The notes under the pieces were generated by a model, which saw only the letters and a program-made list of their open reading frames with translations, made no database searches and was not told the DNA's origin. A stretch of 60,110 nucleotides of DNA, the filler included, from Jimgerdemannia flammicorona (taxonomy: Eukaryota), in NCBI GenBank assembly GCA_003990765.1. It is 3 parts of 3 records of this genome, joined end to end, with 100 filler letters (N's around TTAATTAATTAA, not from the genome) between each part and the next. Parts side by side here need not be neighbours in the genome. Positions count along the whole stretch, not along the records: positions 20,073 to 40,043 come from RBNJ01001790.1; 2 more parts are not named here. One strand, 5' to 3'. Positions 9,491 through 40,904 of this stretch are shown here, piece after piece. A program made the translations under genes and the position numbers. Positions within the stretch are counted from its first letter, which is position 1, and every line of letters begins with the position of its first letter.

Positions 9491-9492
<2 letters not shown>

Positions 9493-12499: not shown

Positions 12500-12700
12500 T
12501 TCAGTTGTTCCAGGAATCATATTCCTGAACTAGGTCAGTAGCATTCTGGAGATTGGTCTTGGATTCCCAGATTGCATCATGGATCAGGTAACCTTTCCAT
12601 TTGACAAGGTACTCTGGGTGGCTCTTGTTGCCATGTTTGTTGAGGATCTGCTCAACTTCATATTCTTCTTGGTCATTGATAATGACAGGTACAGGTGGTT
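12500..12700 (-). pseudogene. Chromodomain at the integrase C-terminus
   Basis: Manual translation: EEYEVEQILNKHGNKSHPEYLVKWKGYLIHDAIWESKTNLQNA. Confidence 0.9.
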
Positions 12701-15700: not shown

Positions 15701-16058
15701 GTACGATTTGGAGAGTAACATGTACTCAATAGTCACTGATTCGGAAGGGTAGATTGTGGACTTCCTTGCTGATAATATGTGAGGTTCCATCAGCTGTAGC
15801 AACTACTTGAGTCTGCTATACTAGAGAGGTGAAGACCTTAAGTCTGTTGGCTGTTTCTTTGCTGATGAAGTTGCCTGAGGTACCACTGTCTATCATAATC
15901 TTGACAGGTGCTCGGTTGACAAAAGCTTTAAGTGTAAGCAGTTTGTCTAATCCAATGGTGGTGATTTCGGTTGTAGGAGCTTTCCTTCTGTTGGTTCTTC
16001 TTTGAGCCAGTTCATTGACACAAGAGAAGCAATCATCAATTATTCGAGAAGAGTACAT
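12700..16058 (-). pseudogene. pol: pol of element A: aspartic protease, RT, RNase H, integrase (multiple stops)
   Basis: [91 protein letters not shown]. Confidence 0.95.
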
Positions 16059-16164
16059 TCCAATGCCATGGGGGCATCAGCCACTTGGTACATATCCATC
16101 TTCGATTTTCTTGTAGAATTGTTCTTCTTTGTTCATGGTAGGTTGGGCTGGGGCTTTGTTTGAT

Positions 16165-16562
16165 AAGCCAAATCCTTTGGATCCTCAGATGGTGGGCAGT
16201 AGTTCAGGGACTTCCTTAACTATCAGAGTTGACTCAATTTTCTTGAATAGGATCTGGGCAATGCAGAAACCTATGGGGATCTTGAAGGGTATCTAACTAT
16301 GATTTCGGATGAGGACAATAATTTCACCTGTATAATCTTTGTCAATGACTCCTCCTTCTACTGAGAGTCCTTTCAATACTAGGCTGCTGCGACAGCATAT
16401 TCTTCCAACATGTCCTTCAGGGATTTGAATACTGATTCCTGTATAAACTTGCTTGACTTCTCGGTTGGAGACTGTGGCTTCTTCGGCTGCATACAGATCA
16501 TATCCAGCTGCTTTTTGACTTCCTTTGATTGGGGCCTTAGTAGTTTGTCTTAACTTGACAAA
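16165..16562 (-). pseudogene. dut: dUTPase domain of element A, between the Gag zinc knuckle and the protease
   Basis: Manual translation: KAAGYDLYA..TGISIQIPEGHVGRICCRSSL..VEGGVIDKDYTGEI..IAQILF..(R)GSKGFG; all five trimeric dUTPase motifs. Confidence 0.9.
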
Positions 16563-16599
16563 GTCCAGTGTTCTGGTGGTCAGGTTGTTGAGATGGTGC

Positions 16600-18490
16600 A
16601 GAGTGGTAACAGTTGCTCATATTGCTGTTCGGGGTTTTCGGTTAGGGCAGGTGCTGGCCATGTGTCCTGTCTTTCGGCAATAGAAGCATGCTCCGCTTCT
16701 TCGAAGTTCATTCCTTTCTCCTTCAGTGAGTTTCTTGAAGGTACTCAGCTGGGTGGGTTCATGATTTCTGGGTGTCCAAGAGTGGATGTTGAGGGAGCTT
16801 GGGATACTTCATGCTTGGGTTCTTCTTTCTTGGTCCAAGTCTTTTCCTTGTTGTTGAATTGTCTTCGGGGCAGAATGGGTCCAGCTGTTAGGATTTGCTT
16901 GACCATAGTCTTGATTCTTGCCAGGCACCATTGTTGGTGATCGCAACCAAATAGGTGGCCTTGTTCTCGGATTTTTCTAGTAAGCCATTCAGGCAGAGCA
17001 TCGAATAAATGGTCTGCTCTTGTACCATTTCGTGCTTCATCATTGGCAATATATCCTAGGCCAACAGTGTTCAGGAGTGACTCGAGTTTTGTACAGAAGG
17101 TTTCAAATTCTTCCTTGCCATATACATCAAATTTGAGGTTGCAGAGTTTTACTCGAGATTCGACAACCATGGTTTTGCTGTGGTATTGAGCAATCATGAG
17201 TTGTTTGAGTCCAGGGGCTGCAGGATGGGCTCCATATCCTAGGGTATTGTTTGCTGCATTCTGAGCAACTACTGCAGGTCAGGTGTCCCATGTGAGGGGT
17301 TTTTCAGGAAGGGTTCGCCACCATTCTTTAGCAGGTCCTCGGAAGAATATAACAACTCAGCAGACATAGGCTGTAGTGGTAGCAAAGAGTTGTTCCAGGG
17401 TGTGGTCTTGATTGTTTGTCAGAATGTGGTTGGCAACTCGCTCATTGGTCCATTGATTGGCTTCAAAGTTAGTATCAACTACACTAATGAAGCTTTGGAC
17501 TTCTTGTGCAGTACCATTAAAGGTAGGTAGGCTCAGATTTTTGGTAGGTTGGGTCTGTTTAGCTAAGGCAGTAATGGTTGCTGCCATTATGGCTACCTGA
17601 GTTGTAAGGTCTAGAATCTGTTGGTTCGCCATGTTGTTTACTGGAGGCGGTTGGACTACTGGTAATGGTGTTACTGGTACTACTTGAGGTACTGGTGCAG
17701 AGTGTGATGGGGTTCTTTGGGTCTGTGTAAGTTGCTGGAGTAGTATTTGTGGGTCTGGAGTAAGGGCTTGATAGATAACTGTTTGTTGTTATGTAGGTGT
17801 GTTCTGGTCTGATAGAGGTGTGTCTCCTTCGGTGGTATATCTGGGATCGAATTCACTGAGATACTCCTCCTTCTCTTCAGTTTGGTCCCCATGTAATTGG
17901 GTTTGCTTGGTGTCAAAGTAGACAGAATCAGTTATATATCTGATTTCGGATGGACTTAATTCAAAGTCAAGTTCAGGTTCGGTATTGGTTTCAGATTCAG
18001 GTAGAGTAGTGGTAGGGCCTGCTTCTGGTTCGGGGTCTGGTAGCTGATGAAGGGTTTCTCTTGCTTCTTCCTTAAGAATATGGCGGGCCTTGCTATTCTG
18101 GAATTGGTAGTATAACACAGTCTTGGTCCTGGTATGGTGGAAGTCGGTAAAGTTGAGCCACTTGGCTATAGAGGCTTGGGCTTCATAAGGAACTAAGGCT
18201 AGAAAGACTGCTGCTGGTTGTCCTAGGTCACTCGGATTTGTAGAGCTGACAAAACTCTTATTGAGAAGAATAAAGAAGGCTTCAATAAGACCTTCTTCAT
18301 CTTGACTTGCTGGGTGTAGTGCAAGGAGTTCGGTGAATAGGGTTTCGCCTATTTGCTGGTTTAACCGGAGTACTTCTTTTTTTGAATGAAGTTTATCCCA
18401 CTTATTGCAGATATAGAGGTCAAATTGTCCTTGTACATCAGGTTCAATTCTCTCCAGATTGTCAGATGGTTCGGATAAATTCCAGTTCAG
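16600..18490 (-). pseudogene. gag: gag of element A with a long N-terminal extension and CCHC knuckle
   Basis: LPTFNGT..SFI (capsid start) in 17357-17632; CFYCRKTGHMASTC at ~16650-16690; the 17789-18118 ORF is in the same frame; the start position is approximate. Confidence 0.8.
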
Positions 18491-18593: not shown

Positions 18594-19972
18594 TGTAAGA
18601 GGGTTGCTTTTTAGGGTAACCATTACGTAGTTCTGGAAGGGTTTTCTGGAAGTTCTGGATATTCTGGAAGACCGTTTTCTTAAGGTCAAGATCAATTTCA
18701 TATAGAGTATGTCCTCTATGCTTATTGATTTTAAGATCAGATTGACATCTCAACCAAAGTCCTTTTTCGGACTAGTTCTGGATGTTCAGGATTTTCCATA
18801 TTTCAGGAAGTTCAAGAAACTAAGACCAGCTTAGTTGAATTGGCGTATCACTGCAGACAATACTCAATTAGGAAATTTCGTGATGGGGTTAGGAGTGGGA
18901 CCTAATGGGGAGCAGATTTACTTAAGAGTGGTTTGTGGGTTATTAAATAGGTTTATTCGCTATTCATGATATTGCTATACTAGGAGTAGTTGTGTGAAGG
19001 AATATTGTAGGAAAGTGCTCAGGAGTTGTATTCGAATTGTTCAAGTCTTCAAGTCTGAGATTCTGAGGTCTAGGAGAGGGGGTATTTATACTAGTGAGAG
19101 GCTATTTGGACTATGCTAAATATGGATGTAGCACTAAGTGCCTTGCTGAGTCGGAATGCAGTCACGTAGTACAATAGTGATCTGACATGTCAAGAGATCA
19201 TCTAACTACTGAGTTAGTTCACAGTTATGTTATACAAGACTAATCTAACTATACTATGACTGCTAGGCTATTTATGGTTTAGGCACTGTCTGGGTAGTCT
19301 TCAATGATATCACCATCAATTGCATCATCTCTAATGAAGTAGTCGTCTAGGAAGAGTGGTTCACAGATTACTTCTCCTTGTTTGCTGAGATAGTAATACA
19401 TTGGGACTTCATCTCTATCCCATAAGATAGCATCATCTGTCTCGTATGCTGGGTAAGGTGTTGGTGGGTGAAGGATGGGTGTATTGTCTTCACTTTCATC
19501 AGATTTGCTGTCTGCGTACCTTCTATAGGTTACAGCACTATGAGTTGTAGTGTTGTAGTAAGCTGGTGGCTGTGGTTCATGTTGCTTATACTCAGGTGGT
19601 GGAGTTGTTGGTTCAATTTCGAGAGTTGTCTGAAGGTACAGGTTGTGTTCTCCGGTCTCTTCATTATAGTTGAAGTAATCAGGAGTGAATGCGGGTTAGT
19701 ATTCATACCAGTGGTCATTGTCCCAATAAGTCTTGTATATGGTTATGAACTATTATAAGTTCATCGGCAAGGTTGGCAGTATGATCAGGGTTGGCAGGGA
19801 TCCTTGGCTTGAGGTCATGTCCGCATCAGAGGGATCATTGTCTTCTGCTTTATCTTCATCGAAGTGGATTATATCGTAGATGTCCTTCATGGCATAACCA
19901 ACTTGAGACATTTGCAGGATATGGTCGTCAGGGTGCGGGAAGGTTCTGTCTGTAGTTTCAACATACTTTTTT
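18594..19972 (-). repeat. 5' LTR of element A (truncated by the contig end), with the second copy of the LTR ORF
   Basis: Colinear with 10043-~11415; differences are mostly transitions. Confidence 0.93.
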
Positions 19973-20072
19973 NNNNNNNNNNNNNNNNNNNNNNNNNNNN
20001 NNNNNNNNNNNNNNNNTTAATTAATTAANNNNNNNNNNNNNNNNNNNNNNNNNNNNNNNNNNNNNNNNNNNN
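19973..20072. other. Artificial contig linker N44-TTAATTAATTAA-N44
   Basis: Six-frame stop linker, identical to 40044-40143. Confidence 0.97.
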
Positions 20073-21266: not shown

Positions 21267-21562
21267 CGGATTAAAGATGGGTCTGTGTCGGGTTAAATAC
21301 GGGTCAGGGTCAGGTCATGTATATTTCTCGGGTTGGGTTAAAGATGGGTTACATATAATTCCGGGTCGGGTTAAAGACAGGTGACGTACGTTTCCAGGTC
21401 AGGTTAAAGATGGGTGACGTATAATTCCGGGTCGGGTTAAAGACAGGTGACGTATTATTCCAGGTCGGGTTAAAGATGGGTGACATATAATTCCGGATCG
21501 GGTTAAAGACGGGTGACGTATAATTCCGGGTCGGGTTAAATATGTACACGGGTCGGCTCGGG
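21267..21562 (+). repeat. 33-bp tandem repeat (GGGTTAAAGATGGGTGACGTATAATTCCGGGTC), about 7 regular units plus degenerate ones
   Basis: Units recur at 21335, 21368, 21401, 21434, 21467, 21500, 21533. Confidence 0.92.
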
Positions 21563-21575: not shown

Positions 21576-24130
21576 GCTGAAGGCACCAGAATCCACGAAA
21601 AAGTGGAGGAAGCACCGATCCGACACCAATAAAGGGGCAACTCATTACCATTGCCCTTCTCCCACTATGCCCCTGTAGGCACAGCAAATCAACCCAAGGT
21701 AGAGGGGGTAATAATAGGGGAAAGGGGACTTGAAAGGTCACCTACTAAACCTTGTGACCGGTAAGGTAGTAGAGAAAGGAGCTTGACAGATATAGAATCT
21801 TCATGATCATAGAGATTTCACAGATATAGAGAATCTATACTTGTAAAAAGTGACTTATAGAAAATATAGTCATAACTTAGCCATCTTATAGCTAGTAAAC
21901 TTATATAAATATCTCAATATCTAGAGAGAATAAAACCTCAGATTGAAATAGTTCAAAGTAAAGAAAAAGCAAAGAAACTAATAAGTCTACAGATAGATAT
22001 ACTTTGAATTACTCTTCTGTACTCTGAGAACTCTGTGAGAGTCAGAACAAGTCAAGTTTTCAAGATACAAAAATCTGTCATAATTCTGAGATTAGACATC
22101 TGCTATATTACAACTTAGTGCTCATTGGCTGGTGATTCAAGATAAATTCCTCACTTTCAAGCTGAACAATGAACAACCACTACCACCTGAACAACTATAT
22201 AAATTGAACTAAGATATTTAGATAAGATAGATATAAGACCACTAAGTTTTTATAGTTATACTTTCAGATAAGTCAATCATTATCTTTATTAATAATTTTG
22301 AGCAATACACTACTATAAGCAAGATAGCAAGTAACTCTTATACTCTTTAGTCTTTAAGGACTAGTAAGAGCAGCATTTATAGCTATAACTTATATAGGAA
22401 ATAATGATGATACTATACTAATAGTACAGAAGATTTGGCTCCAAGCCACTTACTATATCGATAAGATCAAGTAAGCTCTAAAGAATTAGCTCAATACAAC
22501 TTACTAAGGAATGAGTAAAGATCCAAACACATTCTATATCAGAATTCAATATCAGATAATTCTCATAGATTATACTACTACCATCAGAGATCAAATAGCT
22601 AAAGTAACTTTTATAAAAAAAATCTACCCAGAAATAGTCCTAGTTATCTACTTATCACCAATAGTCTTAGATCTGCCACAGAAGGTCACTTATACTCAGC
22701 AATATTAGATAGTTAGATACTCACAAGACCATATAATAGAGAGAGTCACTGGAGTCAGAATTAAAGCACTCAAGGCAACTAGCATAATCTCTACCATAGT
22801 GATCAATTGAAATACATCTCAACCAAGAACTACTAAATAATAGAGAAATAGTAACTCTATGGAGGAACTCACTAAATAGTTTGCTGAAATAACTATCCAT
22901 CTAGAAGATATAGTAAAGGAAATCAGAGGAAGAGACTGCTATCCTATTCAGAAGTTTGCCACTATCTTAGACAAGAAGAGGAGTACCTGTTATACCTGTG
23001 GAGAAGACCACTACTCCTATGAATATATAAGTAAAACTAAGCACAAAGCCCAATCAAGCAATACTATATGAAATAAGGAGCAGGCCAATATAATCACCTT
23101 TAAAGAAATTAGATAGTCTGATAAAGAAAAGTGGGAGGCCTATCTAGTATAGACTACTAAGAAGGATATCTACAAAGAATCCTATAAGAAATCACCAGGA
23201 AGATCCAAAAAGAACTCAGTGGAAAGACAGATAGAAACTGCTATAGAAAGTCAAGCTAAAGAGACAGATCAAGATATGGAGCTAGAATAGGCTATTCAAA
23301 ATATTATTTGAGAAACCACTCTAGCCAGTAAAGGAGAAAAGAAGAAAAAGCTTCACAAAACTAAGATCTTTAAGTATGATATCTTCAAGGATCTCAGTCA
23401 ATAAAAAGTCAATGTAATCTTTGACCAGCTGATAGAAATACTCATATTCAGATAGCAAATAAGATATAGACTTACTGAAATAACTAAAGAGCAAGAATGG
23501 AAGATAACTGAGGCCAATAATATTTAAGAGGACTCAGGAGAAGAAAGTGAAGACAACTGTAAGACCTCTGCCTATACAATTTATCAAATCAAGAATAGAG
23601 TCTTTGAGACTATCATTGATATAGAAGCAGAAGGATACTTCCTTAGCAAGAAAGTAGCAGACCACCTAGGTTGAGAAGTTGAAGAAGCAACTAAATTGGT
23701 ATTTGTTACAGCAGATAGTATAAGAGCCATACCTCTAGGAAAGATTCAAGATATTTCTATCAAGTTTGGAGAAGCAATCATTCTAGTAGATATAATCATG
23801 ATTAATACAACTAACTATAATATTCTTATCAGCAATCAATGGCTTCATGAAGCCAAGATAGTAATTGATCTAAATGCTCAGAAGATATAAATCATCTACT
23901 ATAGATAGAAGATATAAATTTCCATCAATGTCAACAAAAAAGTCCTATCTGAGATAGAGAAAGAAGAGAGTGAATAAGAGAAAGCTTATATAGTGACAAC
24001 TCAGAAAAAGAAGAAGAAAATCAGATGGATGAGCAAAGAAGACTGGTGTAAAAATATTATAAAAAGATATATACCATAAGGAGTCTGCTCTCATAGGATC
24101 TGAATGTACTATATAGAGTATATCAATAAG

Positions 24131-24162
24131 TGTTAATGTTTCTATACAATCAATATTTAAAC

Positions 24163-24199
<37 letters not shown>

Positions 24200-24604
24200 T
24201 ATTTGGGAAGTCTGAAAAAGAAAAGGAATATAAAAAAGAAAAAGGGCTATAAAGTCCAGCTTAGCTCAGCAGAAGCAAGTATGGAAAAAAAAAGAAAAAC
24301 CAAAGAGAAAAATAGTGGGTGGGAAAAAGGAGATGAGTGGTAGAGTAAACAAGTGGTAAAGCAGATAATTAAGTTATTCTGCTGAGTGTCCAATGTGTAA
24401 GCAGCATATGTCTATCTTAGGTACTAGCTAGTATATATGAATTACATAGAGGTACAAAATATCTTTAGTACTAAATATCTAGAACTAGCATATATATACA
24501 GTATAAGACCTCTCCACTCACTTCTAACCTATGACTGTAAGTAACTAATTAATACATATCTATTGACTTGTAATCTCAGTTGATATTACCTATTTATCAG
24601 TACA
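24131..24604. other. Unrelated ~470 bp insertion in pol of element B with a (TA)n microsatellite (24166-24197); possibly a solo LTR
   Basis: Non-coding composition interrupting the PR-dUTPase linker; TG...CA ends, but no convincing TSD. Confidence 0.4.
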
Positions 24605-24749
24605 CTGGTAAAATCAAGAAGATATATCACTAAAGAAGAGAGAAGGCTCTTAAGAAACAGGTAAGAGAAGAAAAGAAAATAAAAAAAGAAGAGGATAACA
24701 AACCACCAGCTCTCCTTGAAGATAGTGATGATGAAGAGGAAATTAAGAT

Positions 24750-25155
24750 CAAGATTTGGAAGATTTATTCTAATACAGTCTTATCAGAATATAAGTCAGA
24801 AAATATAGCTGGAATAGATATCAACAGTGGAGGAAACTATACTTAAACCTCAGACAACCACTCTACTTGCAACTGGTCTAGAGATGACCATTCTAAAGAA
24901 TCATGTCAGAATTCTCAAGACAAGAAGTAGCCTGGCTAAAAGTGAAATCACAATTGAAGGAGGAGTCATTAATTCAGATTATATTGGAGAAATACTACTT
25001 ATTACTAGGAACCACAATCCTATGATTTCATTTTTAATCAAGAAGAAGAACTGACTGGCATAGGTATTGATCTTCTCAGTTCTTCAGCCAAGAATTATAG
25101 AAGTCAAGAAGTTGGAGGAAATAGAAAGAGGAAGAAAAGAATTTGGATCCACAGA
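24750..25155 (+). pseudogene. dut: dUTPase domain of element B, between the protease and RT
   Basis: AGIDI, ATGLEM, TRSSLAK, IEGGVINSDYIGEI, ERGRKEFGST. Confidence 0.88.
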
Positions 25156-27935
25156 AAGAGAAGTATTTATCAATACTAAGATCACCAAGCTAGAGTATAA
25201 AAAGGAAGAAACTATAAATAAGCACAGCTATACTATTGGAAATAAATTTCCACTCAAGACAGAGCTCAAGAAAATACTTTACAAATTTGAGAATGTTCTT
25301 GCTATGGACTTTAAGAATATCAAAGGAAAGACTCCATACTACTATTATAATGTAGATACTGGAGATACTGAACCAATTTATCAGAAGACAAGACCTGTAC
25401 CACCAGCCTATCAAGAATGGCTTAGAGAAGAAATCAAGCAGATAGAAGAAGCTGGCATCATCAAAGAAACCAGCAGCCCCTGGTCTTCACCAGTTGTACT
25501 AGTCTCAAAGAAAGAAAGCAAGTCTGGAGAATTTACCCCAAGACTCTGCATCAATTATAGAAAGCTCAATATAGTCATCAAAAAGGATTGCCAACTACTA
25601 CCCTATCAGTAATATCTTTATAACTCTGGAAAATAAAGTACAGTACTACAGTATCTTGAATCTATACTCAGGATTCTACCAAATTGGACTCACAGAAACA
25701 GCAAGTGAGAAATCAGCCTTTATCACTCCAGACAGAACCTATATCTACCTGTAAATACTATTTGAGATATATAATATATCAGTAAGTTTCTAGTGAATAA
25801 TGAACAAAATCTTCTGCTATAATATAGAAAGATAGATGATAGTTTATATTGATGATATAATTATCTTGATGATATAATTATCTACAGCAAGATATTTGAG
25901 GAATATCTGCAGTATATTCAGCAGATGATAGAGAAGCTAAGATAGCATAGACTATACATTAAGCTCAAGAAATATAAATTCATAGAAATTAAGATCTTCT
26001 ATCTTAGCCACATTATTAACTAAGATGGAATATATACTGACTCTCTCAAGATATAAGCAGTAGCAGTATACCCAAGGCCTACTACTGTTACTGAAGCCCA
26101 AGCCTTCATGGAACTTATCTCATACTACTACTGATTTATCAGAGAATTCTCTAACATTGCAAGCCTAATCTACAAACTCAATAAGAAGGATATTAAGTTC
26201 TAATAGACTGGCAGGCAACAAAAAGCATTTAATGAACTTAAGATCAGACTGATCCAGACACTCATTCTCAGAAGACCTAATTGGACTCAAGAATTCATCC
26301 TATAGACAGATATAAGCATATAGAGACTAGGAGCAGTCCTAGCTCAAAAGAAAGACAAAGTAGAGTATATCATTACATACCTAAGCTAAGGAATCTGAGA
26401 AGCCAAAAAAGAATATAAATTCTATAAGTTGGAATATCTTGCAGTTATCTGGACTATAGAGAAGTTTTACTACTATTTTGCTAGAAGACACTTCATCATT
26501 CAGATGGACCACTCAGCCCTCACTTGTTTATTAACCACTGGGCAACCCAAAGAAATCTATGCTAGATAGATCATAAAGTTACAAGCATATGATATAACCA
26601 TCATATACCACTTAGGAAGAACTAATATCAATGCAAATACCCTCTTATAAATACTCCAAAGGACCCCCAACCAGTAAATCAATCATGAATAAGAAGCTCT
26701 ACTATAAAATTATCACTTATCTAAGACAGTGAAAGATACTTCAACATCTGAAAGAATGGATATAAATGATTATCAACAGAACATAGAAACAATTCAAAAC
26801 TGATAAAGAAATATCAAAGAAAAAAAAGCTTCTAGTTATACCAGAATACAAGAAGGAACAAACAATGAAATCAGTATATAAACTTAATCATCTAGGAGGA
26901 ATGAATATATATGATAAAGTAAGAAGAACAATATGGTGACCAGGAATGGAGAAAGATATCAGATGATTTGTCAAGATCTGTGACAAATACCAGAAACAGA
27001 AACAAGATCAATAAAATCAAGCCCCAGAATCAGTACATATAGAATTAGTACTATTTGCCCACATTGCAATAGATGTGATTGACCCTCTACTCTTGACTTT
27101 GATGGGTAACTAATATATAATTATCATCATAGATACTTTCACAAAATGGATAGAGATAGGGCTTCTTAAGAAAGCTAATATACAGTTAATTGCTAATTTC
27201 TTTTATAAAGAAATTATCTACTAGTTCAAGACCTCAATACAAGTAACCACAGATAGAGAAATAGAATTTGTGAATTAGTTCTTTGAGGTTCTCTATAAGA
27301 AGTACAAGATCTAGTACATTTAGACTACAGCATACCATCCTCAAGAAAATGGACAGACAGAAAAGACTAACAAGACTCTCAAGAATGTTATCACTAAGAT
27401 CTGTGATAACTACAAAAACTAAGATCACTGTCTGTCAATAGTATTATCTGCTCTCTACGATATTTGATCATAAAGTTCCATTTTACCCCTTAGAAAATAC
27501 TATTCAGAGAAGAAAGTTCCCAAGAAATCTTATCATCTAATAGAGATGCTATATAGAAATACATAGATACAGAGATATGAAGACTATACCAAATCAGAAA
27601 GAAGGCTGAGAATTATATAACTAAGGTGCAGACACTATAGTGGAATAATACAGAAAAGATTCACAAGTTCCTAGAGATTATCAAGATAAGAGATAAGGTC
27701 CTGGTATATTAGAATATAGTAGAAGCTTCATGGTCATAAAAACTGGAGCCCAAGTGGGAAGGATCTTACCTTGTGTAAGATATAAAAGAGACTACCTTTT
27801 GACTATGAAAACTCTCAAGCAATCATCCCTACTACTATTCACCAAAACTAACTTAAGAAGTATCATGACCAGTCAACAAAGTATAGCCACAGCTCTCAAA
27901 ATCACTAGTACTGCACAATAGACCATAGAAAGACA

Positions 27936-28316
27936 ATGGTATACTACTGAGTCACCTATGATAGAGGAATTCTTTGATAGTATTCAAAGACACATTTATT
28001 ATAAATTTCACACTTCAAGACCTACTAGAATTGGACAGAGCTTCAAAAATACTTTAAGTTAGAATAGCTACTAAACTTGCAGTCAGAGATGATAAAAGAA
28101 GATTGGATCAGAGAGTGCCAGCTCTTCCATGTTTAGATTACTATTGCTAAACAAGTGTATAAGTTATTCAAGGAGGATAAGCCAGCCTTAGCTCACCTTC
28201 AGGAAGTGGTTTCAGGAAACTTTGTATAAGTCAGAAGACATCATTGGGAGATTGTGATGACACAGATCACACAGTATAAAGAGGTATAGATTATAGAGGC
28301 TTGGGAGTTTGAGTGA
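27936..28316 (+). pseudogene. Extra ORF downstream of integrase in element B (~127 codons, C>T-type stops)
   Basis: Single frame from ATG 27936: ..NWTELQKYFKL(E/G)*LL..ITIAKQVYKLFKEDKPALAHLQEVVSGNF..; homologous copy at ~33898-34290. Confidence 0.75.
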
Positions 28317-29089
28317 ATAGAATATTTTAGAAATAAATCATCTATTTAGAAGGAAGTTGTAATGATTGATCTGAATTAGCAATATGAATTAGGAGAATAG
28401 ATATTTGATTGTAGTATCTGAATCTGATTTCCAAATATAGTATAGCCTTATAAATAGCAGTCATGTTTTCACAAATATAGAAACTTCATAAATATAGAAA
28501 TTCTACAGATATAGAATCTTTATAATTATAGAGATTTCACAGATATAGAGAATCTATACTTGTAAAAAGTAACTTACAGGAAATATAGTATAACTTAGCC
28601 ACCTTATAGCTAGCAAACTTATATAAATATTCTAATATCTAGAGAGAATAAAACCTCAGATCAAAATAGTTCAAAGTAAAGAGAAAGTAAAGGAACTAGT
28701 AAGCCTGCAGGCAGATATACTTTGAACTCACTCTGAGAACTCTGTGAGAGTCAGAACAAGTCAAGTTTTCAAGATACAGAAATCTGCTATACTTCTGAGG
28801 TTAGGTATCTGCTATATTATATTAAATAGAGAAAGAGAATATTTATACAAGATCTGAAAGAAAGATCTGAAAAGATTTTAAAAATAAAAAGGAAAGTCAA
28901 GAAAATAGTTCTTAATAAAGATAACTAATAGAATTTTAAAATATTTTAAAAAATTCTCTAAATAATTAGTTAAGATAAAATACTTAATACTGAAAAAAGA
29001 TGAGAATATTCTAGTAAAGTCTTAATACTAAGAAAGGATTTTTAAGTATTTGAAAATACTGAAACATTGTAGAATATTAAAAAAAAAAA

Positions 29090-32000
29090 AAATAGAATAG
29101 AACTGAATCTATAAAGGACAGAAGATTGTACAAGTAATATTCATAAAGATTAAGATTCCCCAACTACAAGAGGTCTCTAAACTGACTCAAGATACAAGAC
29201 AAACTAAAGAATTTAGAAGCTCAGATAAGAAAGAAGTGCATCTTTTCCAGATTAATTACTTTAAGAAAAATACTCCTCAGCAAGTATACTATCAATCAGT
29301 CAAACTATACAAGAATCTCATCCTAGAACCAGAAGAGCAGACTATCTTCAAAATCTTTATACCATCTAATTCTAAAAATCTCTTCTTCAAACTCAATAAG
29401 AACATCAAGAATAAGGATATATATTTCCTAATAAGATAAACTCTATACACTCTTGAGCAATCAACCAAAGCTAAGAAAGCCTCATTTTGCTAAAAGAAAC
29501 CATTATAGGCTATCTGGTGTCCTACCTCAATCTGATACTCAGAGAAATTTATAAACTAATCCTATTAGAAAATAGCAGATCTCAAAAGAAAGAAAAGACC
29601 TTTTTATGATCAAAGAGAAAGTAAAGCCTTCCATCAATATTAAAGAAGAATTGATAACTCAGTAATAATAATATGTAACTAGTAGAACTCCTTCATAAAT
29701 ACTAGAATATCTTTACTATAGACTATAACAATCTACTATATAACCTATTATACTACTATAGCATAAATATAGGAAATATAATACCTATTCAACAGAAGTC
29801 TTATAGATTACTCTATTATCTAAAGAAATTTGAAAAAGAATATATTCAGGAACTCTTAGTCAATAGAGTTATCTGACTCCATGAGCCAGTCCTATACTTA
29901 TTATATCTAAGAAAGAAGAATAGAGACTCTGTATAGACTACAGAAAACTTAACTTAGTAATAGAAAAAGATATCTACTCTTTGCTCAGAATTGATGATCT
30001 CCTAGACCAATTATAAGATATCAGATATAGATTATTTTGTAGGATTTTATGAGATTCTTATAGATCTTAAGGATATTCAGAAAACAGCTTTCCTTACCCT
30101 TGAAAATCTATTTGAATATCTCTAAATGTCTTTTAGACTCTGCAATATATCCCCAACCTTCCAGAAAATAATGAACTCAGTTTATATCTTACTAGTCTAC
30201 TACTGTCTGATTATATATATAGATAATTTCAATATCTATTCAATAAATTTTGAAGAATATCTATACTATCTAGAAGAATTCTTCCAGCTTACCTATAAGA
30301 ACTACCTGAAGCTCAATACTAAGAAATACTACTTTGGAAAACAGAAACTTGAATTTCTTAAATTTATTATTTCTAAAGAAAGAATCTATACAGACTCAAA
30401 GAAAACTGAGAAGATCAACAACTGACTAGTACTCAAGACTCAGAAGGAATTACTATTATTTCTAATACTAGTATTCTACTATAGAAGATTTATCAAGGAC
30501 TTTGCCCAAATTGCTGCTCTAATTTGAACTTTTCTTAAGAAAGAAGTACTATATAAATAGACAAAACCATAAGAATTAGCCTTTAGAGTACTTAAGTAAT
30601 ATATAGCACTAATTCTTGTATAATCCAACCTATAGAAGCTATTTCTTTTATATATAGATACCTTCAAAGATAGCTTTAGAGTAGTTTTAGCCCAAGAAGG
30701 ATCTGATAAGTAGTACTATATAATAGCTTATGCAAGCTGAGCTACCAACTAACAGTAAACCAATTATAGTAACATTAAACTGGAATGACTTACAGTTATA
30801 TATATAGTTACTCTGTTTAATACTATCTTATTAAAAAAAGATTCACTTTGATAACCTACCATATTACTCTTAAATAGTCATTCAACTACAAAAAACCTAC
30901 TAGAATCCTTACTCACTGGATTCTTATCTTATAATAATATTAATATGCTTTCTTATTAATCCCAATAAACCAGAAGAAAGGTATATTGAAGAATCATACT
31001 CTAAAGGAAGTTCTTATAATCACTAATATACAAGAAGACCTCATCTGATAAGAATATCAGAAAGCCCACCAAGGACAAGCAAATATAGAAGAAAAGCTAT
31101 AAATAACATATATACTAATACTGGCTCTATCTCAGAATATAAGTTTGAGATATACTCAAGAAATATAATATCTACCAGAAGTACTAAAGAAAGAAGAATT
31201 ATCAAGTATTATTATAATCAATTGTACTACTAGATAATATCTTTTAGAGATAGAGAGTATATAGATATTATTGAACTTCTGTCAGTTATACTAAAAAGAA
31301 ATAAATATATCTTAGTATTTATAAAACATCTAACCAAATAGCCTGAAGTCTTCTCAATAAAAATTTCTGATATCTTAACCATTGTTGGCCTCCTTTATAG
31401 TCTTATACTCAGATATAGACCTTTAGAAGAACTTATTTCTGACTGAGGTACAGAATTTATCAATAATATAATTACAAGTTATACTTAAATTTATAAGATC
31501 CACCTCAACTAAACCACATTATACTACTCTTAAACTAATAGTATAATAGAATAAATAAACTAGACTATCAAGAAAGAACTTGCTCAAATAAATCCTATCA
31601 ACTGGAATCTCTACTTATCTGAGATCCTATGGAAAATTCAGAATATCTCTACTATCTCTACTAAATAAAAGTTATTCAAGATAATATTTACTAAGAATGT
31701 CAGAACTACTGATTATAAGAATCTTGGAGATCTCCTCAAAAAGGCAGAAAAAATACATAATTAAGTCTGAGCTCAGATAATTAAGATTCAGGAAAGACAA
31801 AAGTAGTATTATAACTAGAAATAAAAGGATCTGAAGATCAATATTGGAGATTAAGTACTAGTTTGGAGAAATATAATTAAAATAAACTTTACTACCAAAC
31901 TAGAGTCCAAATAGAAAAAACCTTATCTTATATATAATAAAACTAGCATCTATTTAAAAAACATAGATAGATATACTCTAAGAACTATAGTCTATATTAA

Positions 32001-33691
32001 TTACCTCAAGATATACCCACTACTCATATAATAAACTAGAAGATTGACTAGTATCTCTAGACTCTTGCTCTCAGTTTTTTCTAATTTCTACTAGTTTTCT
32101 TGCCTCAGTTCTGAGAAATCAATGGAACTTACCTTTAATAGATTCAGATATATCAAGGAATCCTTATCTTAGTAGAATATCTACTGCAGATTCACTAACT
32201 ATAGACCTACTATATAATTAGTCAACTACTGCAAAATCTTCCAGTCTCAGAACAGACCTATATCTGTAATACTACTGGTCTGTCTTAAAGGAATACTATT
32301 ACTATAGACAGACTTTATACAATTTACAAATAAAATATTATAGTACTATCTCAGCAGTTTTCTCTAAATAGCTTTTAGAGAATAATTATACTCACTTACC
32401 GAAGTATTATCAATTATATTGAAATCCTGTTCTTTAAGAAAGAGAAAGAGCTACTTGAATAGAGTGATTCAGATACTAGAAAAGATGATAGTTACTGAAG
32501 ATATCTATAGATACTATAATGATAACTAAAGAATAGTCTGAGAACAGACTACTCTTTAGTGAGAGCTAATATAATGAGCAAATAATATAGTATAGCTAGA
32601 TAATGTGAATACTTGACATAGTATTGTTATTCCTATCTAGTTACTCATATGTGCTATTACTTATAATTAGTAAGATATCAAATCAGGTTTATTGATCTGT
32701 ATTCTAAGAATATATCTGTATTTATCAGATATATCTATACTCACTAGACCCACTAGATACATCTATACCTACTAGATATATCTGATTACTCTCTTTTCAA
32801 AATAGTATTACTATATATTCTATAGTTAGCTATATAGTAACTAGATAGTAACTACAACTATATAAAATATCTCAGAGATAAGAGTGAATAAACCTCAGTC
32901 TGAAAAGTTTAAAAGTAAAAGTCAATTGTCTGATATACTTAAGAGAAATACTTGTCAAAGATTACTTAATCTAGAAAAAATTGCAATACTTAGGAGATAT
33001 ATCTATTAATAAGTTATTATTAAGAAGTTGTGAGCTTACTTTTTACTTTGGTCTACTTTCTGATATAAAGAAGAGAAGTCTATCACTCAAAGCCAGTCTA
33101 ATATAAAATGTATCTTTATAGTAAATCTATTTGTATAAATAAAGTAGTCTTTGATATAACTTTGAGAAGTCTGCTATATTTTAGTATACTTGCTAGATAA
33201 ATTCAAAAGTCTACCAATTCAGAAAGAATTCATATCAACTGAGTTATCTGCCAAATCTACTACTTATTAAGAAAAAGCCACTATTTTTAAGTAATTTATC
33301 AGTTTAGAAAGAATTCATACTATCTATCAAATTGCCAACTTATTGCTTATTAAGAAATACTATTAAATTTACTATGCTATATCAAATCACTTATATAATA
33401 TAGAGATTTTTTTACAGAAATTACATATATAAGAAAACTACTCATACTATAGAGAGATTATTACTATATTTAAGAAACTATCCTAATAAGAAAATTACTA
33501 AAATTATCCATTATATAAATAAAAAAACTTATTTAAGAATTCAGTATTGTCTTTATACTACTAAATACCAATAAAGATACTAGAAATAATTGAATATTTT
33601 ATTGCTTTTTGATAAAGTAACTAGAGACTGAAGCTAAAATATATAGTAGCCCCAATCTTATAATTTGCCTTCATTAAGTCAGCATATTACA
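29090..33691 (+). mobile_element. Heavily mutated Gypsy element C (same family as D): dUTPase C-terminus, RT, RH, IN, extra ORF (~32122-32530), 3' LTR (~32570-33691)
   Basis: Colinear with the reverse complement of 42670-44560; the LTR matches 48534-50014 and ends AGCATATTACA at 33691. Confidence 0.88.
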
Positions 33692-34738
33692 GTAGTTATA
33701 AAAACTGAAGCCTAAGTTAGAAGAACCTTATCTTATACAAAATATAAAAGAAACTACCTTTTGGCTATAAAAATTATTAGATATAATCATCCTCACTACT
33801 ATCTATTGAAACTGACTTAAGAAGTACTATAACTAACTAATAAAGTACTGTTACAGCCCTCAAGATTATAAGTGCTACCTAGTAAGCTATAGAAAGACAA
33901 TAGTGTTCTACTAAGCTACTAGTTATAGAGGAATATTTTAATAATATTCAAAGTATCTTACAGACTTACCTATTATAAATTTCACACTTTAGAGTCTATC
34001 AATATTATACTGAGTTTCAAGAGTATTTCAAGTTGAAAAAATTACTAAATAAGAAGGACATGACTAAAGAAAAATAGATTGCAGAGTGCTAAATACTCTA
34101 TACTCAGATTACTATTACTAAATATATAGATTTATAAACTATTTAAAGATGATAAGTAAGCTTTGGCCTATTTCTGAAAAGTAGTCTTAGGTGATTTCTG
34201 ATAGATAAAAAAACATTATTGAGAGAATATAATCAAGCAGATTATACAATATAAGGATATATAATTGGTCAAAATATAGAAATTTGAATAAGATGATTTA
34301 GAAATAAAATTACTTATTTAAGAGAAAGTTATGATAGTTGAGCCAAATTAGGAACAATAATTAGGGAATAGATATATATTTATATAATTATATAAAAAGT
34401 ATAACTATACAAATCTCACAATTATATAGATTTTACAGATATACAATTTGTACAGATATATATACATATGATCTCTCAACTATATAAAATGACTCACAGA
34501 AAAAGAAGTCTAACTTAGCCATTATAGTTATATATATAAATATCTCTAGTATCTAAAGTAAATAAATTTCAGATCAAAATAGTTTAAGTAAAGAGATAAG
34601 AAACTAGTAAACCTGTAGGCAAATATACTTCAAACTCACTCACTCTATATCTGAGAACTCTAAGGAGTTAAAAAAGATCAAATATTCAAGATACAGAAAT
34701 CTGCCATACTTCTGCCAGTATATATCTACTATATTATA
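33692..34738 (+). mobile_element. 3' end of a second family-B element (B'): integrase tail, extra ORF, PPT, LTR (~34330-34738)
   Basis: Paralogous to 27725-28821. Confidence 0.85.
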
Positions 34739-36037
34739 CTAGTTAAGATATAATACTTAATAATACAAAAAATTTCAAGAATTTCTAAGAATTCAGAAGG
34801 TATTAAAATATTGTGAAATATTCAAGAAAAGGTAAAAAAGACTAGAGAAAAGATATAAAAATATACTATAACTAAGATATAACTAAGAAATTATTATAAA
34901 GTCTGAGAATTTTTAAATTATATACTAATAGAAAGATAAAAAGAAGTTAGTTCTTAAATATCTTATTTATAAGAATTTAAAATATAGTAAATATATGTAT
35001 TGATAAGATCAAATACTAAGATAAGAAACTTGAAGAGACTAAAGGAGATTATGAAAGTAGTCTTAGAGATATCCTTAAACTTGATTTAAATTTGATGATA
35101 ATCAGATATAAAATTAAGCTTAGTAAATTACTTAACATTCTTGAGTACTTTATAACTTCTTTCAGAGAACTAGGTTCTTTTAGTTCAACTTTGACTTATG
35201 TGTTTCCTTTTAATTCACAGATATCGTAGTCAATCTTCTCATTCTTAAAATATTGTACATATGTTCCATGGGATATCGGGCTTTGTCTGAGCGCCCAGAC
35301 CAAATACTAGAAAAATCATTTGTGATGAAGGCGGTTCGGGTGAGACCAGGTTCGCAATGCGTCGACGTGAAGAGTAATATTTCGTCGGAGACGCCTGCAA
35401 GATATATGATGGTAATTTGAGAGCCAGAGATAAGGCGACAACGACATCGCACTTTAGTGGCACTTGAGATAAGGATTTAAGCGACGTTTTCCGTGCCAAC
35501 TACTTCGGATGGAATGTGTTGTGGTCGAGCAAGGGCACTGTACTTCTACAACACTAGAAGATTTCAGGCAGTTTAAGCATTGGGAAACGTAATCGATCAA
35601 GTCTTCAAAGCGCATTATAATTACATCGCGAATGCAATAAATAAACATTATATTCGATCTCACTAATTATGTATTTGGTATAGATGTGATTGCGTTTTTA
35701 TTCTGAGTCATAATTTTGGAGGGTGGTAGTTGCTGCCTGCCGATTGCGTCGGTTTCGAGCTCATCATGAGATACGTGCAGAAACGCTGATTCCGTATATT
35801 TAGCTTTCATTGCATTTATTTATTTGGAATTTACAAACGCGAAGGTAGCTTTTAGCCCCCGAAAAGAAAAATGAGAAAACTCATTGGTTTGATGTCGTTA
35901 TCAATACAATTTACATGTCGCGATGAAAAAACACACTAAGCAAATCCTTGAAACCCTCGCTCACACCACCATCGCACCCTCGACGACCGTTTGCTGGGTC
36001 CCTCGGATTCGCAATTAGTTTCGCGTTGATGATCGGA

Positions 36038-36541
36038 CTAACAATCGCTGTCAGTATCGCAATCAGTTGTGTGATGGTCGGAGCAAGATGACTCGTGGTC
36101 GGAGCATGATGTGTCATGGTCGGAGCAAGACGTTTCATCGTCGGAGCAAGACGTTTCATGGTCGGAACAAGACGTTTCATGGTCGGAGCAAGACGTTTCA
36201 TCGTCGGAGCAAGACGTTTCATCGTCGGAGCAAGACGTGTCATGGTCGGAACAAGACGTGTCATGGTCGGACGTGTCGCAATCAGAGTAGCGGGGCTTGT
36301 GGTCGGACTCGGAGGAGTGGCAAGACTCGTCGGAATCATGGTGGTGCTTCTTAATCGGATCACAAGGCTTCTTCCCCTTCTTCGATTTCTTCCCTTTGCC
36401 TTTCGGAGCGGGATGCGTAGGTTCTCCTCTGCGTGCGAGGGCGGCACTATCCCTATGGGCAATGGGGATTGGGGTGGACATGACAATGGTGGCGAACATC
36501 GCCAGGAGGACAAGGGGGACGAGGGCGTTGGAAGGCTTCAT
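36038..36541 (-). CDS. Small secreted protein (167 aa): signal peptide, dibasic RR site, Lys-rich patch, HHH, nine SCSD[HD]xx heptad repeats; candidate metal-binding or effector protein
   Basis: MKPSNALVPLVLLAMFATIVMSTPIP hydrophobic leader; intact ORF in a CpG-rich island; TATAAAAG ~90 nt upstream; AATAAA at ~35820-35815. Confidence 0.85.
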   Translation of the reverse strand: MKPSNALVPLVLLAMFATIVMSTPIPIAHRDSAALARRGEPTHPAPKGKGKKSKKGKKPCDPIKKHHHDSDESCHSSESDHKPRYSDCDTSDHDTSCSDHDTSCSDDETSCSDDETSCSDHETSCSDHETSCSDDETSCSDHDTSCSDHESSCSDHHTTDCDTDSDC

Positions 36542-36626
36542 GATGATGGAGAGGAGAGGAGATGAGGGTATGAGATTGCGAAGTGGGCTGATGAGGCTGT
36601 CGGTTAATGAGTGCTGAGGATGTGTG

Positions 36627-36634
36627 CTTTTATA
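36627..36634 (-). promoter_or_regulatory. TATA box of the secreted-protein gene
   Basis: TATAAAAG on the minus strand, followed by a CT-rich leader to the ATG at 36541. Confidence 0.7.
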
Positions 36635-37087
36635 CACAACATTTGGGTGGATGGCACGTCTGGAGGGTAGCTCGACTTGTTTTTGGTATGTCCACAAGAG
36701 CCCGTTACGGCCTGTTTTTTTTTTAAAAAAAGCGCATTGTTATTTTTGGGTGCTTTGATATTAAATAATTCACATTTTTTATCGTAAATAATACACATTG
36801 TAAATAAATGCGAGAGGACCCTTCGCAACAAGCCACCCTGAACGTTTTCCATGCTATATTTGAATGCATGGCTATTTATAGACCATACATCGAGCTAACG
36901 ATCCTCGGAGGCGGATTTTTCTATTTTCGCCAACTGTCATCCAAGCGCCACTATTTCTTTAAACTGGGTCAACTTGGTCTAAAAATAGGGTACTTCATAT
37001 ACATAACTTATGGTAATTGACAGCGATCCGATTTCGGATTCTATTTGTGCAACTCCAAAATAGCCATCAAACCGGTTGTTGACGATC

Positions 37088-37360
37088 ATTTTCAAAGTCG
37101 TTTGCGACGCGTGACACCTCGTGAGCAGGGGTTTGCGATCTTCGCGTCTTATCGAGTGCATATTTTTCAAAGTTATTTGCGACGCGTGACACCTCGTGAG
37201 CCCTATAAACGACATATTTTCTAAAGTCGTTTCCGACGCGTGACACCTCGTGAGCACTTTAAACAGCATATTTTCCAAAGTCGTTTGCGACGCGTGACAC
37301 CTCGTGAGCACTATAAACGGCATAAGTGAGCAGGGGTTTGCGTCTTCGCGTCTTATCGAG
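37088..37360. repeat. Tandem array of four ~38-bp cores TTTTC(A/C)AAAGTCGTTTGCGACGCGTGACACCTCGTGAGC (spacing ~74/54/54), plus a second 35-bp duplicated motif (37121, 37326)
   Basis: Read directly; each core contains ACGCGT. Confidence 0.88.
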
Positions 37361-38034
37361 GGCACATTTCCAGACGACGTTCGGCGATGATTAGATCCAT
37401 TATCAGGGCATCTGTGCATCATCCGATATATTTTACCCACTAATACCAATCAATATCTTGAAGCGGGCGTTGTGGTGTTGGGGTAATCACCTTTCTTATC
37501 ACGACGCCCCGAATCTTCTACCGACTCAGCCCTGTGGAGCTGAATGTAGTTTGTGAATGACCATTTGTAGCGCCAGGTGTCCTGGGCATGATGTCCGTCA
37601 GCTTTTGGAATAAATTTATTTTACGGACTCCAACTTAACGACATATGATAGCGAAGTAGCATACCATCTTCGGTATTTAACTTTTTTTTTTTTTAAAAAA
37701 AAAAAATACAAACCTCTTAGCGCTACAGAAGCCATCACGAGGGGGTGGCTTCCACGTACCTTATAGCGCGCCTCCGTCCTAAATCCACCCATCCAGACCA
37801 CCCCTTATACCGACCCCACCGACTCCACCGATCCTAATACGGGTGGGAATGGTCATATTATCCGAACGCTATCCGTGCTTTTCGAAGGGCTCCCAAATCA
37901 CCGAACGGATAATTCCTTTTGCATCGCTCGTCTTCTTGAGTCATCCGGCTCAGATAACGTAATCGTGAGAGACGGAGGTGACCTAGTCCGCTTGACTCTA
38001 CACACTGACACATCGGGAGAGACACCGCAACTCA

Positions 38035-39900
38035 CCCGCGGGACAATGGCTTGTGGGAAATAAACAAAAAAATGTAAAAATAAGCGGTTCTGTCATGATC
38101 GATGCGAGTGGCGGGTACCGCACTTGAGAGGAGGTGGGGGGCTGTGTAAAAACAAAAGAAGGTTTTCCGATCAAATGCAGGGGGTTGTTGTCGTAAGATC
38201 GGGAAAACACGAACAATGAACAAAAGCACTAACAAAAGCATGAACCTAAGGCGAATGAAGGGCGGAAGGGCTGTTTGGGGGGGTCTTGCAACGGATCGCA
38301 CGGCTCATGCGAAACAACGGAAACATGGACCTCGCGCGAAACACCGGCGTACGTCACTGCATCACTAACTAGTGAAAAAACCATTAGTTAATTTATCACG
38401 GGTATGGACCGTGGGGCGATGCGCTTATGTCATGGTGTGAGTGTAAAATGTATAGGGAGCACGTAGGTAACGTAAATAGCAAAAGAGATGAAGAAAAATA
38501 TAATAGAATTCAATCTATAAATAATGATGCTAAAAAAATACCAAATATTTTCTAATAACTTATATAAATACATTGTTGGAATGTGCATGTTGCTGTTGAT
38601 AATTGTGACGCTAGTTGAGATTGTTGCGAGATTTGAATATGGTGGTATATTGACATTGGCAGATCACTTGTACATCACGTGCGAAAAGTTCGTAATGGAT
38701 ACCGCTGCCCACATTTGACCCGCGGTTGCTCCTTGGTGAGGAAAATAAACCAAATAAGTGGTCCGGTCGTGACCGATGTGAATGCTGGCGCGTGAGGGGA
38801 GGGGCGATGTGTAAAATTTTTCGATCAAATGCAGGAGCTTGCCAACAGAAACTCGTGAAAGCGCAAAAAACGAGAAAAAAAAAAAGCATGGACGAAGGCG
38901 GAAGGGCGGTTTGCGGGAACCTGGTTCAAACACCTCAGCTGAAACTGCCATTTAGCCATTTACCAAAACAGCCAATTGTTGGATTCTATATATATTTCTG
39001 CCATCAAATGCCACCAGAAAATATTGACATCGACGTGCAAAAATTTGGTCACGTAAATTGATTTGTGATACTCACGATAATATTGCCAGGCGTCACAGCG
39101 ATTTTTGCTTCCAGTCAATTTTGTTTTGGCAAAGGACACAATATTTCGCCTCTGCATTGAGACATGTCCCCCATACAATATCCACCACAACATTTATTTA
39201 TGCAGTAAGAGGTTAGGTTTACATTTTATTTTTTTTTATATTTATATTTTTATTTTGGCTTTGACTTTTGATTCTCGCACAAATACGAGAAAAAAGAAAG
39301 AAAGAAAAAAAGCGATATAGATGAAATCTACTTTTGTGGAGGGTTCAAATAACTTCCAGTTTATATTTTTTTTCTATTTAATTTACATTCCAATCAATCT
39401 ATTTCAGCTGCTCACACGAGATGTCATACCAGTGATCAATGCAATGTCGATATATGTAGGACCAAATAGACCCCATATTCAAACCTCTGGACATTTTCGC
39501 TTTTATAGGAACTTACAATGTTATCAGACAAACCAAAATATTTAAACAATCTCAACGAGCATCACAATTCTTAATATCAACATGCACATTCCAAAGATTT
39601 AAATTCCATTGTAATTTTTATTTATTTCATTTTTTATTTTTACCTCTTTTGCAAAAGCATTGTCATTTAATTCGTTACCTACATTGCTCCCTATACACTT
39701 CACGCTAACACCATTACGTAAGCGCATCGCGTGACCCGTACCCATATTTGTCAATGGCCCGTGTTTCGCGCGACATGCAAAACCCAAAACCGCCCTTCCG
39801 CCTTTGTTCATGCTGTTGTTATGTTTTCGTACATGATTTTTTGTGCATTTGTTCATACCTGAGTTTTCCGTCGACAACCCCTGCATTTCATCGGAAAAAG
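38035..39900. repeat. Diverged non-coding module in three copies: direct 38035-38690 and 38718-38915, inverted 39415-39900
   Basis: TTTT(C/T)CGAT(C/G)AAATGCAGG and AGCATG..GGCGGAAGGGC in all three copies; GCGATGCGCTTA, TATAGGGAGCA and TTGGAATGTGCATGTTG in the first and inverted copies. Confidence 0.8.
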
Positions 39901-39999
39901 CTTCAAGCGGACGAGGTCACCTCCACGACGCCCTAGATTACGTTCCTGGGCCGGATGAGTCAAAGGGACGCTGCCGTCCTAATTCCACCCATCTAGATC

Positions 40000-40043
<44 letters not shown>

Positions 40044-40143
40044 NNNNNNNNNNNNNNNNNNNNNNNNNNNNNNNNNNNNNNNNNNNNTTAATTAATTAAN
40101 NNNNNNNNNNNNNNNNNNNNNNNNNNNNNNNNNNNNNNNNNNN
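40044..40143. other. Artificial contig linker N44-TTAATTAATTAA-N44
   Basis: Same as 19973-20072. Confidence 0.97.
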
Positions 40144-40182
40144 TTTTGACAAATTTCATAAGAGTTATCAAATAGGAGTAAT

Positions 40183-40290
<108 letters not shown>

Positions 40291-40904
40291 CAAAATTATG
40301 GTTTTTATATAACTTATCTACTTTTTTTTTTTCTTTTCTTATTATTAATTCATTGCTACTTAATAATTCTCTAAATAGCTAAGATTTTCTATAAAATTAT
40401 TTTAAGACAAACTTATTTACTAAATTATCCATGACAGTTAGCCTTTTAAGTTATTGAGAATTTAGAGCTAAAGGGTCTTTTTTGTCTTCTGAAATCAGAT
40501 ATTACTATTCCTTCTGCTAGAACTATATGAAATAAAATTAGACTGATCTTTTAATAAAAATATAATACTGTCAAAATTATACTACAGATAAGATTTAATA
40601 TTTTAATATTAAATATAAATTTAAAATTTCAAAGTTAAATAACTTTAAATTAATTTTATTTCAATTTATTTATTTAGAAATAGAATATATCTAATCAAAT
40701 ATCCTTCACTATTGATATATAGATATTATTCAATATATATACATTTCTTAAAATTAATATATACTGGATTTGTCAAAATTAGCAACTCAACTATATATAG
40801 AATCTTATTTAGGTGAAAATCTTACTGGTGTTTTTGTGAACTGTGTTTGAGATTTTAATATATAGATAAAGATATATAAAAAATAAGTCTTTTAAAAAGA
40901 TTAT

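Follow-up and report, generated by a model that had tools for sequence, protein, structure and literature searches.

A 60,110-nucleotide stretch of the Jimgerdemannia flammicorona genome (GenBank assembly GCA_003990765.1; three parts joined end to end, hereafter the window) was analysed for an extra open reading frame (ORF) that follows pol in several of its Gypsy retrotransposons. Self-comparison, together with a tblastn map made with the pol of one element, showed the window to be a nest of retrotransposons, in which the elements designated A, B and E each carry such an ORF on the pol (sense) strand (Table 1). By its sequence, element A is a chromovirus. An earlier note on this DNA had proposed that four Gypsy lineages carry one unnamed accessory ORF family, placed either 3′ to integrase or within the long terminal repeat (LTR). 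The position holds for A, B and E. As to the family, comparison of profile hidden Markov models (HMMs) against 501 decoys made membership clear for A and E and probable for B, while the fourth lineage, C, dropped out.

Table 1. Retrotransposons of the window and landmarks around their extra ORFs (PPT, polypurine tract; RT, reverse transcriptase)
Feature	Position	Strand	Basis or remark
Element A	LTR copies 10043-11416 / 18594-19967	minus	self-comparison; LTR copies 93.5% identical
pol of A: dUTPase, protease, RT, RNase H, integrase, SH3, chromodomain	12504-16700	minus	Pfam
PPT of A, AAGAAGGGGAGAG, then T, then TGTAAGC	12084-12096	minus	after chromodomain stop 12504
3′ LTR of A, 2038 bp, TG...CA	10045-12082	minus	PPT/TG, LTR pair, contig ends
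Extra ORF of A: ATG 11825, 365 codons plus stop, 3 internal stops	10728-11825	minus	open relatives
TATA-like box of A, GTATAAATACC	10534-10539	minus	sequence pattern; 195 nt past ORF stop
Second copy of the distal 228 codons of A's ORF, in 5′ LTR	19285-19968	minus	self-comparison; LTR cut by N run at 19973
Element B	21786-28819	plus	self-comparison, tblastn map
Extra ORF of B, ~150 codons	27865-28316	plus	ATG 27865, TGA end at 28316
PPT of B, AGAAGGAAG, then T, then LTR start TGTAATGATTGA	28348-28356	plus	same form as PPT and LTR start of E
3′ LTR of B, short, without ORF	28358-28819	plus	5′ copy 21786-22110, similarity starting only at ~21769/28488
B′, tail-only copy of B	33695-34741	plus	67% identical to 27733-28824
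Remnant of B extra ORF in B′, split across two frames	33925-34288	plus	profile scan, tblastn
Element C	29094-33070		74% identical to D
Element D	44560-42701	minus	74% identical to C
Element E		minus	integrase DNA 55000-54114 67% identical to 26966-27868 of B
Extra ORF of E, ~288 codons, 10 stops, start codon decayed to ATA	52612-53478	minus	open relatives
PPT of E, AGGAGGAAGA, then inferred LTR start TGTAATGATGA at 53737	53738-53747	minus	sequence pattern
Copia-type element, nearly intact	55221-59810	plus	Pfam

The predicted product of the extra ORF of A has an N-terminal core of about 125 residues followed by an acidic tail. Its two relatives are both open: P0003 (128 aa) is 83% identical to residues 1-128, and P0002 (247 aa) is 66% identical to residues 115-364. 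The earlier note had placed this ORF at 11825-11400; it starts with the ATG at 11825 and runs to 10728. A further candidate, the 436-aa repeat protein P0004 (E-value of 4.2e-4 to A), was dropped; its Pfam pattern is a repeat artefact. The ORF lies wholly within the LTR and starts 257 nt from the LTR start; the LTR was delimited as in Table 1 because 12082 and 10045 are precisely the positions at which contigs from four public runs end loosely. Since the TATA-like box and an AATAAA at 10406 both lie beyond the ORF stop, the ORF presumably sits in the U3 portion, upstream of the LTR TATA box. The first base of a TGA of the window lies at 11543; G predominates there among the contigs of the public runs, giving CGA (Arg; X1, 372 of 445 depth units; X2, 20.1 of 20.1). 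Short contig pieces with 85-99% likeness to the A LTR region 10043-12600 numbered 3897 in X1 and 431 in X2, and they differ from the window mostly by A>G and T>C; the A family is therefore present at high copy number in the two samples, and its copy in the window belongs to the more decayed ones. Two runs guessed to be RNA cover the A LTR unevenly, with an adapter-like loose end at 10479, and are unreadable as expression or as a start site.

In element B, the extra ORF starts over the last codons of pol, in a different frame, and ends before the polypurine tract, 32 nt upstream of 28348. The frame described in the earlier note (27936-28316) is real and reads as given there, with 10 stops in 127 codons, although it captures only part of the gene. 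P0009 (121 aa, open, 67% identity, E-value of 1.1e-40) was the sole candidate and the sole match among 5.8 billion proteins, and the N-terminus (MANQQSTATALK...) of its cluster mate P0012 (139 aa, open) matches the window frame that begins at ATG 27865. The true ORF is therefore taken to span 27865-28316 with one frameshift, near 27985, after which a second frame (27987-28313, the extent of a tblastn match) holds six stops.

The extra ORF that the earlier note had placed in the LTR of E is likewise real, at 52612-53478: all four of its database matches are open (174-271 aa, 54-59% identity). Its start lies 636 nt past the end of integrase similarity and is Met in P0005, where the window has ATA, and stops become dense directly after the ORF. 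Metagenome scans for E-type genes yielded no confirmed locus among 228 pattern matches when the E alignment was used, and one among 92 in a second scan; this locus, L001, holds an open 323-codon relative. The LTR start assigned to E (TGTAATGATGA) closely resembles that of B (TGTAATGATTGA) and would put the ORF inside the LTR, 259 nt past the LTR start. This boundary is inferred, because no second E LTR is present in the window.

The window copies of all three genes are defunct, disrupted through C>T/G>A decay at CpG sites. A single C>T or G>A change separates 15 of 19 window stops (10/10 in E, 2/3 in A and 3/6 in B) from the residue found in relatives, where they correspond to W, Q or R codons. 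The motif glycine that the earlier note had restored by undoing G>A changes is present in natural relatives of all three families, which read SYYQIGRLLE and IARKHRELF (A), QEYFKLGELL and IAKRIHKLF (B), and QEYEIGNLL and AKKIHQIF (E). The ratio of observed to expected CpG is 0.00-0.04 in the old retroelements (333-9900, 21786-34741 and 40150-55047) and 0.30 in A, compared with 1.16-1.19 in the Copia element and in 36000-40000, and the substrate index for repeat-induced point mutation (RIP) is 0.8-1.5. The damage thus looks like CpG decay rather than classical RIP, fitting methylation-driven decay of silenced repeats, and the Copia element looks young or unmethylated.

The relatives bear directly on whether these frames are genes at all, or chance open frames that gene finders picked up on short contigs. 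All of them lie on contigs of 0.7-2.4 kb and are either unannotated or called "hypothetical protein", and P0005 as modelled in ESM Atlas reached a predicted local distance difference test (pLDDT) score of only 0.35; both points weigh against a coding interpretation. However, the same frame is open over 121-323 codons in relatives of all three families at 54-83% identity, including copies only 54-67% identical, and 15 of the 19 window stops fall on W, Q or R codons of relatives, so that accidental frames are extremely unlikely. Differences between L001 and E by codon position (85/60/124; transversions only, 41/23/44) would also speak for coding but are confounded: the two LTRs of A, whose differences (26/7/23) should be neutral, have the same shortfall at position 2. 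This bias and the dependence on CpG placement led to the codon-position test being discarded as a measure of selection, and the evidence for coding consequently rests on the frames that stay open in diverged copies.

The case for a single family was built on HMM comparisons among 507 sequences in all, of which 501 were decoys (real six-frame pieces of the window). The E HMM, built from four E-type proteins, first matched P0003 with an E-value of 3.5e-4 (one comparison) over 110 colinear positions, a score reached by 3 of 2000 shuffles, and P0009 with an E-value of 1.8e-4 (2 of 2000 shuffles). After L001 and two cluster mates had been added and the targets placed among the decoys, P0003 came first with the E HMM (14.4 bits, E-value of 4.9e-4; best decoy 1.7 bits), followed by P0009 (7.2 bits) and P0012 (7.1 bits), and none of the 501 decoys outranked them. 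The P0003 HMM ranked L001 first (20.9 bits, E-value of 8.5e-6) and P0012 second (7.4 bits; best decoy 4.2 bits), and the B HMM ranked P0003 first and P0007 second. When all six frames of the window were scanned, the best non-self match of the E HMM was A's ORF, and the two best non-self matches of the B HMM were the ORFs of A and E. Alignment of profiles with hhalign gave P values of 0.011 for A-E (116 columns) and 0.0093 for B-E (33 columns) with a constant register, and unaided MAFFT alignment found the same register across families, except that B is one residue out of step at the glycine motif. Judged by these profile matches, the extra genes of A and E are clearly homologous, and the B gene is very probably a member of the same family; its membership is stated as probable, not certain, because direct A-B alignment gave a P value of 0.35 only (53 columns, same register). 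The profile similarity among families that the earlier note had expected was therefore found above decoys for A-E and, more weakly, for B with A and E.

Besides the A-B alignment, several other results are weak or null. The B HMM placed P0005, P0006 and L001 only 11th to 13th, the P0003 HMM placed P0005 and P0007 12th and 16th, and the tail protein P0002 was missed in the cross-family comparison among decoys. Smith-Waterman scores between the decayed window copies stayed within the codon-shuffle null for A-B, A-E and B-E when whole tails were compared in all frames, and reached p values of 0.14, 0.26 and 0.08 for the three pairs in chosen frames. The hhalign probabilities are only 3-4%, and a motif regular expression that matches exactly three loci and 0 of 200 shuffled windows proves nothing, because it was fitted to those loci. 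Null window scores, low hhalign probabilities and an uninformative motif would all suit three unrelated, lineage-specific ORFs whose motif is an effect of chance or composition. Yet A-E similarity reaches E-values of 8.5e-6 and 4.9e-4 among ~500 sequences, the core-bearing cross-family targets all rank above or among the very top of the 501 decoys, and every method yields the same register; unrelated ORFs are thus very unlikely, and a real, homologous accessory gene family is quite likely. Two further members named in the earlier note were lost: the C locus (32270-32330, plus strand) reached an E-value of only 5.3 with the A HMM, and the E HMM found nothing in the C tail, while an E "pre-PPT ORF" (53880-53990, minus strand) went unsupported in the comparison with relatives and in the six-frame HMM scan.

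A shared family need not have descended with pol. Recombination or template switching may have carried the gene from one resident Gypsy family to another, or it may have been captured more than once from a host gene family; in rotifers, ORF3 types common to unrelated retroelements are documented (PMC5408684). The tails differ wholly between families, and the gene precedes the polypurine tract in B but follows it in A/E, so the module must have moved relative to these landmarks. Against such exchange or capture, the layouts of A and E are alike, with 257 and 259 nt, respectively, from LTR start to ORF start. The distances from the stop to a TATAAATAC-like box are also similar (195 nt in A and 206 nt in E), a weak point given 10 TATA-like sites per 820 nt in E. 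Core identity (~18-23%) is lower than pol identity (23-40%), as expected for a fast-evolving gene inherited with pol, and a search of 1.8 billion representatives yielded no relative that is a host gene. Exchange or capture is accordingly possible, though doubtful.

On the preferred explanation, A, B and E each encode a third sense-strand gene after pol, and in A and E this gene would occupy U3, upstream of the LTR TATA box, as the 3′-most gene of the full-length RNA. All three families keep the order of pol, extra ORF and TATA box, and only the polypurine tract has switched sides, which suggests that its relocation turned an internal gene into an LTR-borne one. Taken as a whole, this explanation (a third gene after pol, a shared and diverged family, LTR location and a guessed regulatory role) is likely.

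The proteins share an N-terminal helical core of ~60-110 residues with the motifs P..N, [EY]Y.[ILM]G..L, [IL]A[KR][KR]...[IL]F and ..LS; the motif IP.L, between the last two, is restricted to A and E. Both of these types have a strongly acidic tail (net charge of -22 to -34), and the B type is without one. No Pfam family was found in any of six intact proteins (none at an E-value ≤5) or in the window copies, and a PDB profile search returned no relative at an E-value ≤1. AlphaFold models of one E-type and one B-type protein were poor overall (mean pLDDT of 43 and 57), but in both the core is modeled as helix, short helix and helix at a pLDDT of 65-84 (H26-62, H68-74 and H79-92 in the E type; H60-75, H81-88 and H92-105 in the B type), consistent with the helical protein proposed in the earlier note. 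The fold search also proposed there gave no Foldseek match at an E-value ≤0.001 with these models, and ESM Atlas gave nothing usable for P0005 (best score of 0.83). A helix-turn-helix (HTH) reading of the core is a lead only, because its scores lie within the range common for helical models. With respect to known HTH DNA-binding domains (ParB/SopB/KorB, sigma region 4 and DeoR), fold scores are in this chance range, with no sequence signal and no Foldseek match.

Known retroelement proteins do not account for the ORFs. The highest 19-residue Kyte-Doolittle mean was 0.46-0.97 in five of five proteins, compared with ~1.6 for a membrane helix, in a scan by hydropathy only, with no dedicated predictor; this absence of a hydrophobic segment, together with the Pfam result, supports the earlier statement that they are not env-like. 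Nor do they appear to be integrase tails: A and B have their own ATG (11825 and 27865), the B frame differs from that of pol, and the Chromo domain of A ends at 12504, before the extra ORF. The extra proteins themselves have no Pfam Chromo or SH3 match, and no match to a known integrase C-terminal or env domain emerged.

Core shape, acidic tail, position and the parallel with accessory genes at the 3′ end of complex retroviruses point, tentatively, to a nucleic-acid-binding regulator of the element's own expression, with an HTH-like core and an acidic, activator-like tail; this specific role is the favoured guess, though on balance unlikely to be the correct one. A second proposal is that the protein is an RNA-export or packaging adaptor similar to Rev/Rex rather than a transcription factor. 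The E type has an arginine-rich stretch near its N-terminus (RRAMRTRSRR) and ends in a leucine-rich ...LILNFLL, and its gene would be the 3′-most, as in complex retroviruses. However, neither feature is kept in the A or B type, and no homology to any known family was found in Pfam or by PDB profile search, making an adaptor decidedly unlikely.

TATA-like boxes are also found 60-85 nt upstream of the start codons, at 11880-11900 and 53560-53575 (both minus strand) and at 1-12 in L001, and an A-rich ...AAACAA context lies just upstream of the ATG in A, E and L001. The upstream box hints at a promoter of the gene's own within U3. The A and E leaders, which run from the LTR start to the ORF, showed no sequence similarity (score of 93 against a null of 92.7), and similarity between the B LTR and the sequence downstream in E was not above null. 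A bolder extension of the regulator proposal is that the A/E LTR forms a complete cassette (leader with TATA-like box, ORF and polyadenylation signal), such that each LTR, solo LTRs included, could express a trans-acting factor with HTH and acidic tail that activates the family or shields it from silencing; this is quite unlikely.

Extra ORFs after pol are described in plant, rotifer and fungal Gypsy elements (PMC5718144, PMC2864245 and PMC5408684). Like the ORF3/aORF of Ty3/Gypsy elements, the ORFs of A, B and E are third, sense-strand, non-env ORFs after pol that are common to different lineages; they lie before or within the 3′ LTR and their proteins have no gag/pol Pfam domain (6/6), which places them in the positional ORF3 class. 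They are set apart from named ORF3s by the lack of any Pfam family and by the location of the A and E ORFs inside the LTR. Botrytis cinerea provides another extra ORF in a fungal Gypsy element, the brtn gene of Boty-like elements, but brtn is antisense according to the title of Zhao et al. 2011 (cited in PMC8365987), while the A, B and E ORFs are all on the pol strand. No published description of the A/B/E family was found in a limited literature search. The gene thus appears to belong to a known kind, the extra ORF3 of Gypsy elements, with LTR location as its unusual trait.

Among retroviruses, sag of mouse mammary tumor virus, lentiviral nef and spumaviral bel/tas are genes in or overlapping the LTR U3, upstream of the promoter and duplicated in both LTRs. 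The extra gene is similarly a 3′-terminal accessory gene inside the LTR in A and, by the putative boundary, in E; its placement upstream of the promoter would rest on the TATA-like box and AATAAA of A. Unlike sag, nef and tas, it has no Pfam match and is borne by a retrotransposon without env. Although other LTR retrotransposons also contain extra genes, only a small number of these have a function, and very few occur in several lineages. Here, the gene would be retained in two separate Gypsy lineages, one with a chromodomain and one without, and its housing in the LTR in two families is how complex retroviruses arrange their regulatory genes. A regulatory role in transcription, RNA handling or silencing would make the gene the retrotransposon equivalent of the accessory genes of retroviruses and would mean that solo LTRs can bear coding capacity. 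Annotators would gain a profile for a gene that is now labelled "hypothetical" or masked as repeat.

Elsewhere in the window, the ORFs of the CpG-normal stretch at 35.9-39.9 kb gave a usable Pfam family in 0 of 12 cases, with one sub-cut-off viral-glycoprotein match (E-value of 0.0025). For pol, the Atlas relatives of the RNase H piece come from mixed, uninformative taxa. The Copia element encodes gag, a protease-like barrel, integrase and RT as four ORFs, all in the same frame; this single frame of ~1530 codons is broken by three stops only. The N patterns at 19973-20072 and 40044-40143 are identical (44 N, 12 bases, 44 N), and the first cuts the 5′ LTR of A, with LTR similarity absent beyond it, behaving like an assembly gap of unspecified size. 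Tandem units at 333-2864 and 5452-7982 are 5.1 kb apart and 68% identical; they are accompanied by a minus-strand RVT_1 ORF (4369-5019) and by very strong GC skew over 1-10 kb (-0.31 to -0.52). Minisatellites occur at 21329-21559, 36015-36287 and 40888-41188 (periods of 33, 21 and 18 nt), the first directly upstream of the truncated 5′ LTR of B. At the window edge, 3-315 (plus strand) is 92-93% identical to the terminal 313 bp of the A LTR, inverted, and represents a further A-family LTR.
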